A DNA stretch of 26,680 nt from Patescibacteria group bacterium (GTDB lineage Bacteria; Patescibacteriota; Minisyncoccia; Phycocordibacterales; UBA9973), in assembly GCA_038058205.1 (NCBI GenBank), contig JBBUBO010000036.1:1-26680 (forward strand), in the 5' to 3' direction. Made by a program: the position numbers and the translations under genes. Positions 2,304 through 26,680 of this stretch are shown here, piece after piece (position 1 is the first letter of the stretch; each line of letters opens with the position of its first letter). The notes beneath the pieces are model-generated. The model searched no databases. It worked only from the letters and a program-made list of their open reading frames with translations, and was not told where the DNA came from.

Positions 2304-3143
2304 ATGAAAACCTATAAACCGACAAGTAAATCAAGGAGACAAATGACCAACGTGACCTACCGTGGTGTTTTGACTGCGACAACCCCACTCAAGTCTTTGA
2401 CTTATGGTTTCAAGCGTTCCGTCGGACGAAATAGCGCTGGACGCATAACAATGAGACATAAAGGTAGTGGACACAAGCGACTTTATCGCGATGTGGACTT
2501 TTTATATAACAAAAAAGATATTCCTGCGAAAATCACATCTATTGAATATGATCCAAATCGTTCAGCATTTATCGGACTCGCTGTTTATAAAGATGGCGAA
2601 AAGAGATACGTAGTTATTCCAAAATCCGTAAAAGCTGGAGATTCATTTTTGGTTTCTGAAAAAGCTCCATTAGCATCTGGAAACAGACTTCCTTTGAAAA
2701 ATATTCCAGTTGGAACATTTGTTTACAATGTTGAGATCAAACCAAGAGGTGGAGCAAAGATCGGCCGTTCGGCTGGAATCTTTGCGCAAGTTGTCGCAAA
2801 TGCTGATGGATACACAAATTTGAAAATGCCTTCAACAGAAATACGAAAAATAAATGAAAATTGCTGGGCTTGTGTCGGCACAGTATCAAACGAAGAACAT
2901 CATTTGGAAAATTATGGTAAAGCTGGACGCAGTCGCTGGAAGGGAATCAGACCAACTGTTCGTGGTACTGCCATGAACCCTGTGGACCATCCATACGGAG
3001 GAGGTGAAGGCAGACAAGGACGCGGAACTAAAAGACCTAAAACTATGTGGGGTAAAGTTACTGGTGGACGCAAATCTCGTACTCCTAAAAAATACTCAAA
3101 CGTGTTTATCGTCTCCCGCCGACGCACTGGTAAAAACAAGTAA
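2304..3143 (+). CDS. rplB: 50S ribosomal protein L2 (uL2)
   Basis: GRNSAGRITMRHKG..IEYDPNRSA..GKAGRSRWKGIRPTVRGTAMNPVDHPYGGGEG. Confidence 0.99.
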   Translation: MKTYKPTSKSRRQMTNVTYRGVLTATTPLKSLTYGFKRSVGRNSAGRITMRHKGSGHKRLYRDVDFLYNKKDIPAKITSIEYDPNRSAFIGLAVYKDGEKRYVVIPKSVKAGDSFLVSEKAPLASGNRLPLKNIPVGTFVYNVEIKPRGGAKIGRSAGIFAQVVANADGYTNLKMPSTEIRKINENCWACVGTVSNEEHHLENYGKAGRSRWKGIRPTVRGTAMNPVDHPYGGGEGRQGRGTKRPKTMWGKVTGGRKSRTPKKYSNVFIVSRRRTGKNK

Positions 3144-3146
3144 AAA

Positions 3147-3203
3147 GTTTCTTCTTTAGGCTTTGGCGGGCAGGCCCGTAGAAAGACTGGGAAGAATAAA
3201 TAA
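3147..3203 (+). pseudogene. Relic second copy of the rplB C-terminus (VS-[SLGFGGQA]-RRKTGKNK*)
   Basis: Same frame as rplB, starts 3 nt after its stop; repeats the real tail VSRRRTGKNK* with different synonymous codons plus a 24-nt GC-rich insert (3153-3176). Confidence 0.75.
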
Positions 3204-3204
3204 A

Positions 3205-3274
3205 AACCCTCTCCTGACCTCTCCCTTATCAGGGCGAGGAATATGTCCCTCTGATAAGGGGGATTTAGGGGGTT
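3205..3274. repeat. CCCTCTCC/AGGAGGG-family palindromic doublet (locus A)
   Basis: AACCCTCTCCTGACCTCTCCCTTATCAGGGCGAGG...CCCTCTGATAAGGGGGATTTAGGGGGTT; two units in inverted orientation. Confidence 0.8.
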
Positions 3275-3284
3275 GTATTTTAGA

Positions 3285-3312
3285 TTGTGTTTTTCTAAAT
3301 ATGTGTTACTCT
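3285..3312 (+). promoter_or_regulatory. Putative extended -10 promoter for the small basic ORF
   Basis: TG-T-TACTCT at 3304-3312; weak -35 TTGTGT at 3285-3290. Confidence 0.4.
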
Positions 3313-3398
3313 ACTAGGTAGACAACTTGCTCTTTTTTGCATCAGGGAGAAATACTCTCTGGTATGCAGGTTTAATTGTTTGGGGAGGTTTTACTCTT

Positions 3399-3605
3399 AT
3401 GTGTTGTCCTCGACGGAAGCAGGAGAGCAATAAGAATATCAAGGCACTCCGGAGAGAACTTCGGGGGTTACCGAAGAAAAAAAGGAAATCCAAACCCAAG
3501 GCCAAACAGCCGAATATCGGCGGGCTGTTGAACACCAAACAGCCGAAGATCACGGGGTCGAAGACCTTCAAGCCGAAGACCACTGCGGTCAGACTCGAGA
3601 GCTAG
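3399..3605 (+). CDS. Hypothetical 68-aa highly basic protein
   Basis: ATG 3399 preceded by GGGGAGG (3382-3388); 22 K/R versus 3 acidic residues; followed by a terminator hairpin. Confidence 0.6.
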   Translation: MCCPRRKQESNKNIKALRRELRGLPKKKRKSKPKAKQPNIGGLLNTKQPKITGSKTFKPKTTAVRLES

Positions 3606-3625
3606 CTCTCTTGATCCCTCGTACC

Positions 3626-3668
3626 ATCCGGACCACGACAATAGTCGAGGTCCGGATTCATTTTTATT
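3626..3668 (+). terminator. Rho-independent terminator
   Basis: ATCCGGACC-A-CGAC-AATA-GTCG-A-GGTCCGGAT followed by TCATTTTTTATTT. Confidence 0.75.
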
Positions 3669-3695
3669 TGACTTTTTACCCTTATTTGCTAATAT
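3668..3695 (+). promoter_or_regulatory. Internal sigma70-type promoter for rpsS onward
   Basis: TTGACT-16 nt-TAATAT with extended TG at 3687-3688; AGGAG SD before the rpsS ATG. Confidence 0.7.
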
Positions 3696-3724
3696 GAAAC
3701 CAAGCTCGTTAGGAGCTATTTTTT

Positions 3725-4078
3725 ATGACACGATCACTCAAAAAAGGAATAAACATTGATGAAAGACTACTTAAAAAGATAGTAGGTAAAAATCCGTTGC
3801 AAACTCCTACTATTAAGACATGGAAAAGAGCCTGCGTTATTTCTCCCGAAATGCTCGGTTTTACTTTTGGTGTTTATAATGGAAAAGTCCATGTGGATGT
3901 TTTAGTTACTGAAGATATGGTGGGACACAGACTTGGTGAATTTTCTCCAACAAAGAAATTTATGAAACACGGTGGTAAGATGCAGAAAGAACTCGAACAA
4001 AAGAAGAAGGAAGCAGAAATAACTGCAGCAAAGGGCGCGACAACGGCTACAGCTGACGCCAAAGGCGCAAAGAAATAA
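3725..4078 (+). CDS. rpsS: 30S ribosomal protein S19 (uS19) with C-terminal extension
   Basis: MTRSLKKG..IKTWKRACVISPEMLGFTFGVYNGK..MVGHRLGEFSPTK. Confidence 0.99.
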   Translation: MTRSLKKGINIDERLLKKIVGKNPLQTPTIKTWKRACVISPEMLGFTFGVYNGKVHVDVLVTEDMVGHRLGEFSPTKKFMKHGGKMQKELEQKKKEAEITAAKGATTATADAKGAKK

Positions 4079-4130: not shown

Positions 4131-4505
4131 ATGAAAGCTTTTTTAAAAAATTACAGACAGGCTCCAAGAAAAGTTCGCTTAGTGGCTGGACTCATCCGAG
4201 GAAAGAAAGTTGAAGAAGCTATCGTGGAGCTTGATTTTTTGGCGAAGCGCGCAGGATTACCTTTGAAGAAGCTTTTACTTTCTGCTGTTTCTAATGCAAA
4301 GCAAATGGGTATAGAAAAAGAAAATTTATTTATAAAAGAATTACGCGTAGATAAAGGCATAACGATGAAGAGGATGATGCCGGCTGCGATGGGTAGCGGA
4401 CACAGGATAAACAAGCGCACGAGTCACCTAACGCTTTCTCTTGGAGAGAAAGCTTCAATTACGAATGATCAATTAAAAATTAAGAAAAAAATTCGTAAAT
4501 CGTAA
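4131..4505 (+). CDS. rplV: 50S ribosomal protein L22 (uL22)
   Basis: RQAPRKVRLVAGLIRGKKVEEA..LLSAVSNA..RINKRTSHLT. Confidence 0.99.
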   Translation: MKAFLKNYRQAPRKVRLVAGLIRGKKVEEAIVELDFLAKRAGLPLKKLLLSAVSNAKQMGIEKENLFIKELRVDKGITMKRMMPAAMGSGHRINKRTSHLTLSLGEKASITNDQLKIKKKIRKS

Positions 4506-7583: not shown

Positions 7584-7598
7584 TCTCAATAAGGGAAT

Positions 7599-7618
7599 GC
7601 CTGCCCGCCTATGGCGGG
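7599..7618. repeat. GC-rich palindrome GCCTG-CCCGCC-TAT-GGCGGG
   Basis: Perfect 6-bp stem; same CCGCC-N3-GGCGG core as the rpsQ insert. Confidence 0.65.
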
Positions 7619-26216: not shown

Positions 26217-26336
26217 GCCCATTCGACTCACTACGTTCGCTCAGGGCACTCGCCTCAAAATACCTTCCGATTTCCTCAGAGTTATTTTTGTTGTGGCTTG
26301 CCACGAGCGAATTTTGTTCTTACAAAATGAGTCGAG
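26217..26336. repeat. Palindrome-rich spacer between tmRNA and GIY-YIG
   Basis: GCCC-ATTCGACTCACTACGTTCGCTCA-GGGC; GTGGC-TT-GCCAC; ATTTTGT-TCTT-ACAAAAT. Confidence 0.45.
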
Positions 26337-26680
26337 TGGAGATGCGGGGAATCGAACCCCGGTGCAGAAGGTTGTTGCTAAAGAAGTCTACATACATAGC
26401 ACATTTTTGGTTTAAATTAAAAAATTAAGAAATGTGCAAAATATTTTTTAACCGAGCCCTTTTGTTTTGAAAAAAAGTCAGGACATTCTTTTTTCTATCC
26501 CGATAATATTATGCCTCAACTCATATATCGGAAGTCTATGAGAGAGACACGAGCTTACGCGAAAGCGGAAACTCGAGCGAAAGCAAAGTTCTCATTACCG
26601 AAGTAAGGAGAAACTAATGCTTTAGCTTTGGAAGCTAATTTTGCAATTAAGCTATTGGACGAATTTTTACGAGATTACGT
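26337..26680 (-). ncRNA. ssrA: tmRNA, 3' part (5' end beyond the window)
   Basis: 3' tRNA-like end GGGG-TTCGATT-CCCC-GCATCTCCA (T-arm, acceptor strand, discriminator A; CCA not encoded); upstream tag ORF with resume context TTAATT-GCA-AAA ending in ..AFA-TAA. Confidence 0.92.
26555..26644 (-). other. tmRNA tag reading frame AKLASKAKALVSPYFGNENFAFARVSAFA*
   Basis: GCA resume codon at 26644; open for 29 codons; hydrophobic/Ala C-terminus. Confidence 0.75.

Follow-up and report, generated by a model that had tools for sequence, protein, structure and literature searches.

The window analyzed here, 26,680 nucleotides (nt) of DNA from a Patescibacteria group bacterium, is contig C36 of a metagenome-assembled genome (MAG), hereafter G000, which comprises 413 kb in 69 contigs, is 76% complete and has 37% G+C. 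The region considered is its S10 ribosomal protein cluster, where rplB, the gene for ribosomal protein uL2, is followed by a second version of its own 3' end. This second tail is real: it is a displaced true rplB tail of the genus-consensus type. The same arrangement was present in four other species. We lean towards the explanation that the rplB 3' end carries a C-terminal displacement module, as in Rhs and type VI secretion system (T6SS) loci, and that this module is old and was not made in G000. For comparison, a genus set of 212 genomes was used, including G000 (211 others), in which the relatives are labeled as Candidatus Paceibacterota or Patescibacteria MAGs; in the following, G-numbers denote genomes and L-numbers loci. 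Sequencing runs containing this DNA come from groundwater metagenomes of several studies.

A second tail behind the rplB stop codon

The rplB gene lies at 2304-3143 on the plus strand, as do all features of the rplB region described below, and encodes 279 amino acids. It was identified from the list of open reading frames (ORFs), the translation, Pfam matches (Ribosomal_L2_N, 7.7e-31; L2_C, 1e-50) and its homologues, which are 82-93% identical within the genus. The protein ends in ...VSRRRTGKNK with the stop TAA at 3141-3143, and the translated 3' end, called tail 1 here, reads GTC TCC CGC CGA CGC ACT GGT AAA AAC AAG TAA. In frame with it, 33 nt past the stop, stands CGT AGA AAG ACT GGG AAG AAT AAA TAA (3177-3203), or RRKTGKNK followed by a stop, a displaced and untranslated older tail that we refer to as copy 2. 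An earlier note on this DNA, made from its letters alone, had pointed out this second in-frame tail, and blastn, the uniqueness of its 27-mer and a stop-anchored scan all bore it out. A blastn comparison aligned the intergenic DNA with genuine 3' termini of rplB in relatives (L030, 31/32 positions, E about 5e-9 to 2e-11; L010, 28/30; L009, 25/26); with the codons GTT TCT included, 33 nt agreed with the tails of L010 at 31/33 and of L030 at 30/33 positions. The 27-mer of copy 2 occurred a single time in the 413-kb genome, up to 5 mismatches being allowed.

In the stop-anchored scan, the peptide ending at a stop at most 200 nt downstream was compared with the last 8 residues of each of 545 ORFs of at least 80 amino acids. 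For rplB, 7/8 residues were identical, and 0.005 such matches are expected with permuted tails. An unanchored local protein alignment of the L2 tail with the downstream DNA was not significant (score 40 against a shuffled maximum of 43), since the tail is short and basic. A genome-wide search of G000 for other post-stop or pre-start duplicates returned tandem paralogues only, and a weak stop-anchored match behind rplF (5/8), which lies within rplR in another frame, was taken as chance. As a separate observation, the first 22 residues of an RpiB-like ORF (MKIYIGADHAGYELKEKLK...) on contig C10 of G000 (979-1491) are repeated about 670 nt upstream with a stop inside. This repeat may stem either from displacement of a 5' end or from a broken paralogue.

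Counted from the two copies, 22/33 bases are identical, and we thus agree with the observation that the codons are recoded between them. We are also confident that this is no recent tandem duplication. The untranslated copy agrees with the functional tails of relatives at 29-31/33 positions, as against 21-25/33 for the translated copy in most of them. Tandem duplication in situ with subsequent drift was rejected, since an untranslated copy should decay faster, yet it is the one nearer to the functional tails of relatives. At the position where the two peptides differ, Lys (RRK) is the state in most of the genus and in neighboring families, and copy 2 is therefore the ancestral, older type.

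G000 is a fragmented genome (69 contigs, 76% complete), and the double tail could in principle result from alleles of two strains joined in one contig. We regard the probability of such an artefact as negligible. The ENA assembly contig and the Logan contig that encode an identical L2 carry an identical double tail, and Logan contigs from runs of two further studies cross both tails with 0 differences (X4, 2883-3249; X11, 2673-3312); the junction thus passed the check for a chimera. The same layout was moreover found in four other species.

Anatomy of the module in five carriers

The four other carriers are the metagenome locus L089, a Hainich aquifer contig with an L2 that is 90% identical, and G121, G141 and G203 (3/211 other genus genomes). 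The latter three were found by searching the 212 genus genomes, with up to 3 mismatches, for the conserved block described below. In rplB DNA the four are 73-80% identical to G000, and across the whole cluster the DNA identity between the species compared, carriers and relatives alike, is 70-85%. The module is therefore old relative to the divergence of the species, or has moved among them, or both. On alignment, all five carriers showed the identical order of parts, namely translated tail, spacer of 8-9 nt, block and copy 2.

Two copies of the 9-mer YCCCGCCGA enclose the module as direct repeats; the module itself measures about 60 nt. The left repeat, TCCCGCCGA (3114-3122; codons S-R-R), is invariant in the five carriers and is also arm A of a possible hairpin, in which it pairs with GGCGGG of the block (3163-3170 in the minimum-free-energy fold). 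According to the alignment of the carriers, the module-borne tail 1 follows as CGC ACT GGT AAA AAC AAG TAA (3123-3143; RTGKNK and stop), which is the translated C-terminus. Over the 30 nt that begin with TCC and end with the stop (3114-3143), the carriers are 83-100% identical, with the consensus TCC CGC CGA CGC ACN GGT AAR AMN AAG TAR, i.e. ending in RRRTGK(N/T)K and a stop. Tails of this type occur without the module in L080, L096, L098 and G005. The 8-nt spacer (aaagtttc, 3144-3151; 9 nt in G203) is not conserved, with a mean pairwise identity of 0.31 among the carriers. It is followed by the GC-rich block TTCTTTAGGCTTTGGCGGGCAGGC (3152-3175), comprising arm B and the loop, with the consensus TTCTTTARGCTTTGGCGGGCAGGC and a mean identity of 0.91 across the five species. 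In inverted orientation, this block imperfectly repeats the first 13-22 nt of the tail. The right direct repeat, at the same time arm C, reads GCCCGTAGA in the window (3174-3182) and GCCCGCCGA in G203. Copy 2 itself has the consensus (G)CC CGY MGN AAG ACN GGN AAR ART AAR TAR with a mean identity of 0.82. The tail is thus laid out as a direct, an inverted and a direct copy, with TCCCGCCGA and GCCCGCCGA (in the window GCCCGTAGA) as flanking 9-mers, an arrangement that suggests an origin by template switching.

This anatomy corrected two details of the earlier description. Copy 2 had been taken to begin with GTT TCT (VS) and to carry a 24-nt insert. Most of GTT TCT, however, belongs to the spacer, and these codons are absent from the four other carriers; their presence in G000 is therefore a coincidence, and copy 2 starts one codon before the two Arg codons. 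The 24-nt block lies outside copy 2, between the two tails, in all five carriers.

Nor did the block behave as the repeat it had been called. It is single in G000 at up to 5 mismatches, there is one match per carrier genome among the 212 searched, and within the genus it was found only at the rplB end, in 4/212 genomes at up to 3 mismatches. An assignment to multi-copy palindromic elements (repetitive extragenic palindromes, Rickettsia palindromic elements or miniature inverted-repeat transposable elements) was rejected on account of this single copy per carrier genome. When one genome each of 185,579 species was searched for the exact block pattern, matches were confined to this genus and one Acidobacteria-type MAG, the latter likely due to chance. 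A covariance model of the module, run over 94 loci, gave L089 as the sole full match.

The 11-mer core of the block recurs once in the window, at 7599-7609. Over 61 genus genomes, including the unpublished G113, the 11-mer GCCTGCCCGCC had about 68 matches as compared with 5 for the reversed control, or about one per genome. It was found mostly in small GC hairpins near gene ends, and both exact copies in G000 are located in the window (3165-3175; 7596-7615). We also considered an uptake-type signal, for which the 11-mer is enriched but far too rare.

Reading frame of copy 2

Copy 2 might be translated by stop-codon readthrough, or by ribosomal bypass between two CGA codons, to give a second L2 isoform. 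Its variation indeed looks like that of a coding sequence. Among the five carriers 7/10 variable columns are third codon positions (binomial p = 0.02), 8/10 changes are synonymous in kind, including TAA to TAG, so that a stop is kept in either form, and the alignable sequence ends exactly at this stop codon. Copy 2 is in frame in 4/5 carriers, and matching codons flank a gap of 60 nt that holds a hairpin. The details of the individual carriers, however, are difficult to reconcile with translation. In G121 tail 1 is followed by TAG TAA, the block contains a further in-frame TAG and 1 nt is deleted from copy 2; in G141, TAA TGA follows tail 1; in G203, the 9-nt spacer puts copy 2 out of frame. 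The base or bases after the first stop are not conserved among the carriers. Programmed readthrough or bypass would call for an open frame and a conserved recoding context, and in three of the five carriers extra stops, a frame shift or an indel were found instead. Judging from these sequences, translation of copy 2 by readthrough appears very unlikely, and we give hardly any credit to a second isoform made by either route.

Distribution among relatives

The carriers form no clade, neither in the rplB tree nor in FastTree trees of rplC+rplD+rplW and of rpsS+rplV+rpsC+rplP. All three trees place G121 and G203 in one clade together with three non-carriers (G034, G018 and G013); its support is 100/99 for rplB. 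The single tail of G018, GTC TCC CGC CGA AAG ACT GGC AAG AAT AAA TAA, is to the letter the product that would be predicted for a deletion between the two 9-mers of a G203-like gene. L096 and G005 have tail-1-type endings, with the palindrome core and most of copy 2 gone. L096 has 14 nt of spacer and block start in common with G121, and G005 retains the block start only (TTCTTTTA), which suggests that both are decayed modules. Behind this site, L096 carries at 4330-4412 a tandem repeat of about 40 nt (TAATAAGTGAATAAGTGCACGGGTTTGACATTTTAGCCC twice) with a TTGACA box in each unit.

A relative that co-occurs in runs X6 and X13, with a gene body that is 87% identical, has as its sole tail ...ATT GTT TCT followed by copy-2 sequence with 1/27 positions different. 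Alleles ending like copy 2 consequently circulate in the same communities. A joint from 3109 to 3177 was considered as an excised form of the module and discarded, as it belongs to this other species.

Folding of the module and neighboring hairpins

In the RNAalifold consensus structure, GGCTTTGGCGGG pairs with CCCGCCGAAAGAC(T) around a CAGG loop; the 12 pairs are all conserved and show no compensatory change. This B-C hairpin, formed by the block and the start of copy 2, had folding energies of -13 to -21 kcal/mol in single-sequence folds of all five carriers. The window and L089 prefer the A-B pairing, in which the block pairs with CCCGCCGA of tail 1 and the stop codon comes to lie in the loop. 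The 206-nt region of the window folds with z = -3.8.

These properties bring up the main alternative, according to which block and copy 2 act in cis in the rplB mRNA as an RNA element under selection. It could stabilize the 3' end as a hairpin, signal processing or termination, or switch between the A-B and B-C pairings around the stop codon. The old tail would then be kept as a hairpin arm; displacement would be old history and present conservation functional. The identities of 91% for the block and 82% for copy 2, among species with rplB DNA only 73-80% identical and a spacer at random level, are in line with such a role, as are the predicted stability, the z-score and the existence of two mutually exclusive pairings. 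On the other hand, compensatory changes were seen in 0/15 pairs. Copy 2 is conserved outside the hairpin too, ends exactly at a stop and resembles a coding history. L096 and G005 have lost the core and retained the gene, and the block is absent from 207/211 other genus genomes. A separate terminator-like hairpin follows copy 2 in each carrier, with G141 as a possible exception. No Rfam family was matched: with Rfam 15, there was no match in 3050-3760 at E values up to 1, and the only match at gathering level in the whole window was a transfer-messenger RNA (tmRNA) gene on the minus strand (26334-26680; RF00023, 87.6 bits), which is cut by the window end. Taken together, we see an RNA element as possible, if rather doubtful, as a full explanation. 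It and displacement are not exclusive, one concerning maintenance and the other origin.

Directly after copy 2 the window has another GC-rich hairpin, a repeat element at 3196-3282 that is outside the module in other carriers. A search of G000 against itself by blastn returned six further partial copies. The GC-rich hairpin family to which this sequence belongs (...CCCTTATCAGGG...CCCTCTGATAAGGGGG...) begins at the stop of copy 2 and is also found at C4:3168-3253, C37:4536-4626 and C34:870-939 and on C45 and C29; elements similar to the one at 3196-3282 stand behind rplB of L136 and L081.

The rplB-rpsS gap and other displaced tails

In bacteria, the gap between rplB and rpsS normally consists of a few bases. 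Across 32 genomes of this genus it was 72-2823 nt long with unrelated contents, and the S10 operon is broken at this position throughout the genus (window 3143-3725; loci L040-L072). A blastn comparison with relatives showed that the sole part of the gap conserved genus-wide is the sequence at 3668-3724, where rpsS (3725-4078) is preceded by a promoter-like site (TTGACT, 16 nt, TAATAT) and by a leader hairpin of small size. Cargo in the gap included HicA with a hicB-like gene, an IS200/RAYT-like ORF in G022, diacylglycerol-kinase-like ORFs in G028 and G029, and GC-rich segments. One such segment in the window (3399-3605; GC 0.5-0.58) holds a very basic ORF of 68 amino acids (MCCPRRK...) and has neither a Pfam nor an Rfam match. 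G003 has a similar ORF (MCCRRR...) behind its displaced rplB tail, and in several relatives the corresponding place is taken by GC-rich segments whose basic ORFs are unrelated. The segment could be a structured RNA and not a protein gene.

Displaced rplB ends were not limited to the five carriers. In G003 the order is rplB, a hicB-like ORF (no Pfam match), HicA (Pfam, 3.5e-10) and then the last 41 codons of rplB. This second end has 17 differences in its first 86 nt and none in its last 40 nt, which suggests gene conversion or a defined crossover core. In L091, rplB is followed by a Phd-like antitoxin just below the Pfam cut-off, PemK/MazF (1.5e-16) and an rplB tail, in which a Ser codon reads TCT as opposed to AGT in the working gene. 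L139, from another family, has about 660 nt between the copies and then a complete tail of 17 codons with its stop. G011 and L081 have a tail remnant (AGAAAGACTG ... GGAARAATAAATAA) that is split by a conserved 36-nt GC hairpin. Together with the five carriers, these loci show that the rplB end is a recurrent site of 3'-end displacement in this group. A weak rplB-like match of 16 nt in the gap of G015 was left uncertain. Partial pieces of rplB were also found on other contigs of G059 and G016, where they may be assembly fragments.

A proposed course of displacement

We infer from the anatomy and the distribution that the module is an old allele type of the genus, which would have been inherited by G000 rather than have arisen in it. 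The module supplies a slightly different L2 end (RTGKNK and stop), a free spacer of 8-9 nt and part of the tail in inverted orientation. It pushes the older tail that is typical of the genus (KTGKNK and stop) out of the reading frame, with L2 ending at the first stop, and in the predicted folds the inverted block pairs with copy 2, or alternatively with copy 1, in a stable hairpin just behind that stop. Movement between species probably proceeded by recombination with rplB itself as the homology anchor: an incoming piece would bring its own end and stop, and the resident end would be shifted downstream. Since rplB sequence is present on both sides, the gene body on the left and 27-36 nt of copy 2 on the right, homologous recombination could install the module, remove it or overwrite copy 2. 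A clean loss between the direct repeats would restore the old tail, and a deletion of the palindrome core may be another way of loss. The scattered distribution, and the resemblance of an untranslated copy 2 to coding sequence, would both follow from gene flow with relatives that have a single tail.

The earlier note had proposed another course, in which an in-frame 24-nt palindrome first hit the resident gene and a foreign rplB allele then came in by homology-facilitated illegitimate recombination, leaving the old tail as a recent, lineage-specific scar. Part of this survives, as the displaced tail is the ancestral RRK tail and the working RRR tail is of another allele type. GC-rich hairpins are common in G000, and the split remnants of G011 and L081 would also agree with a palindrome hit. 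A single recent event in G000, however, is not what we found. The block and the whole module are common to four other species, with differing spacers that argue against a very recent transfer. The order of hit and rescue fails as well: the block lies upstream of copy 2 and not within it, the VS codons are present only in G000, the block is no repeat family, it is conserved with the module and it is an inverted copy of the tail itself. We therefore consider this course quite improbable.

Several observations weigh against the C-terminal displacement that we favor. Among the carriers the spacer is near random (0.31), but both the block, which is non-coding, and copy 2 are conserved (0.91 and 0.82, respectively). 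A free spacer next to conserved parts fits long vertical descent, with selection on the block and copy 2, better than recent transfers. Copy 2 is in frame with copy 1 in 4/5 carriers (p about 0.05), which we treated as chance. No recombination breakpoint could be demonstrated with per-gene identity tables or with trees, which were built for rplB, for the 1400 nt upstream and for proteins encoded on the flanks, as the relatives are only 70-85% identical and the trees star-like. A population variant with the module excised was not seen in the contigs of four runs; contigs drop rare variants. In G003, finally, the identity of the last 40 nt of both copies is lineage-specific, and a simple foreign-allele model would need a later gene conversion.

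A bolder proposal would see in the roughly 60 nt a site-specific selfish or regulatory insert at CCCGCCGA that works without a recombinase and brings its own replacement tail, which would let the essential gene survive. Its hairpin, made from sequence of the target, would be a translation-sensitive switch (A-B versus B-C) at the mRNA end, and the rplB end would be a dedicated entry port for small cassettes, including toxin-antitoxin cassettes, in Patescibacteria. We think this unlikely.

If C-terminal displacement is the right explanation, a core ribosomal protein gene can undergo a process known from polymorphic toxin loci, with a displaced end that may last in several species. Within this Paceibacterota genus, the rplB-rpsS junction stands out as a hot spot for recombination and insertion, with toxin-antitoxin cassettes framed by rplB tails in some of the gaps. 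For annotation, a tail behind a stop codon should not be read as evidence for readthrough. Should the hairpin be functional, it would be a regulatory structure made from a discarded coding end.

Comparison with known systems

Integrative elements in tRNA and tmRNA genes carry a surrogate 3' end of their target gene. Like them, the module keeps the gene intact with its own copy of the gene end and is flanked by direct repeats; unlike them, it has no integrase, measures about 60 nt, is single-copy per genome and occurs in rplB only. Rickettsia palindromic elements, reportedly described by Ogata and co-workers in 2000, are said to be multi-copy, translated and inserted in frame in genes. They resemble the block as short, GC-rich, hairpin-forming sequences associated with coding DNA in a small genome, whereas the block occurs in one copy, is not translated and stems from the very sequence it targets.

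Homology-facilitated illegitimate recombination (de Vries & Wackernagel 2002; Prudhomme et al. 2002; Meier & Wackernagel 2003, as cited in PMC5361080 and PMC3240628) would have in common with our case, as far as these two sources summarize it, an anchor in a conserved gene on one side and a joint at a short GC-rich microhomology, for which CCCGCC is a candidate here. The events summarized there took place in the laboratory in transformable bacteria; among the distant relatives compared here, neither a donor nor a breakpoint was found. The 9-nt repeats YCCCGCCGA that flank the module may represent such a microhomology, or equally a target duplication or part of the duplicated tail.

For the T6SS effector-immunity modules of Vibrio cholerae, sequential displacement by homology-facilitated illegitimate recombination was proposed (Kirchberger et al. 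2017, PMC5361080). That scheme has a conserved upstream anchor and an illegitimate joint at the other end (PMC5361080), which rplB would share; shifted 3' remnants and recurrence at one locus are common to both, and the mechanism is inferred in both. The toxin-antitoxin cassettes between the rplB tails of G003 and L091 resemble T6SS displacement in particular. The module of the window differs in having no selective cargo: between its tails we found only the spacer and a hairpin arm, and HicA and PemK occur as cargo only in relatives.

A further parallel is the C-terminal displacement of rhs genes (Jackson et al. 2009, BMC Genomics 10:584, as cited in PMC5361080). As outlined in the citing source, there too a conserved gene body receives a new 3' end, and the old end survives untranslated behind the new stop as an 'orphan'. 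In rplB, likewise, the old end stands behind the new stop, the two ends are different alleles and the arrangement recurs in related genomes. The displaced tips of rhs, according to the same outline, encode different toxins accompanied by immunity genes, whereas in our case the gene is an essential ribosomal one, the piece has 9 codons, the tails are near-synonymous and differ by one R/K change, and they enclose a tail copy in inverted orientation. All in all, the event is of a known kind but in a new form: it affects a core ribosomal gene, gives a nearly synonymous end, includes an inverted copy of its own and has lasted in several species.

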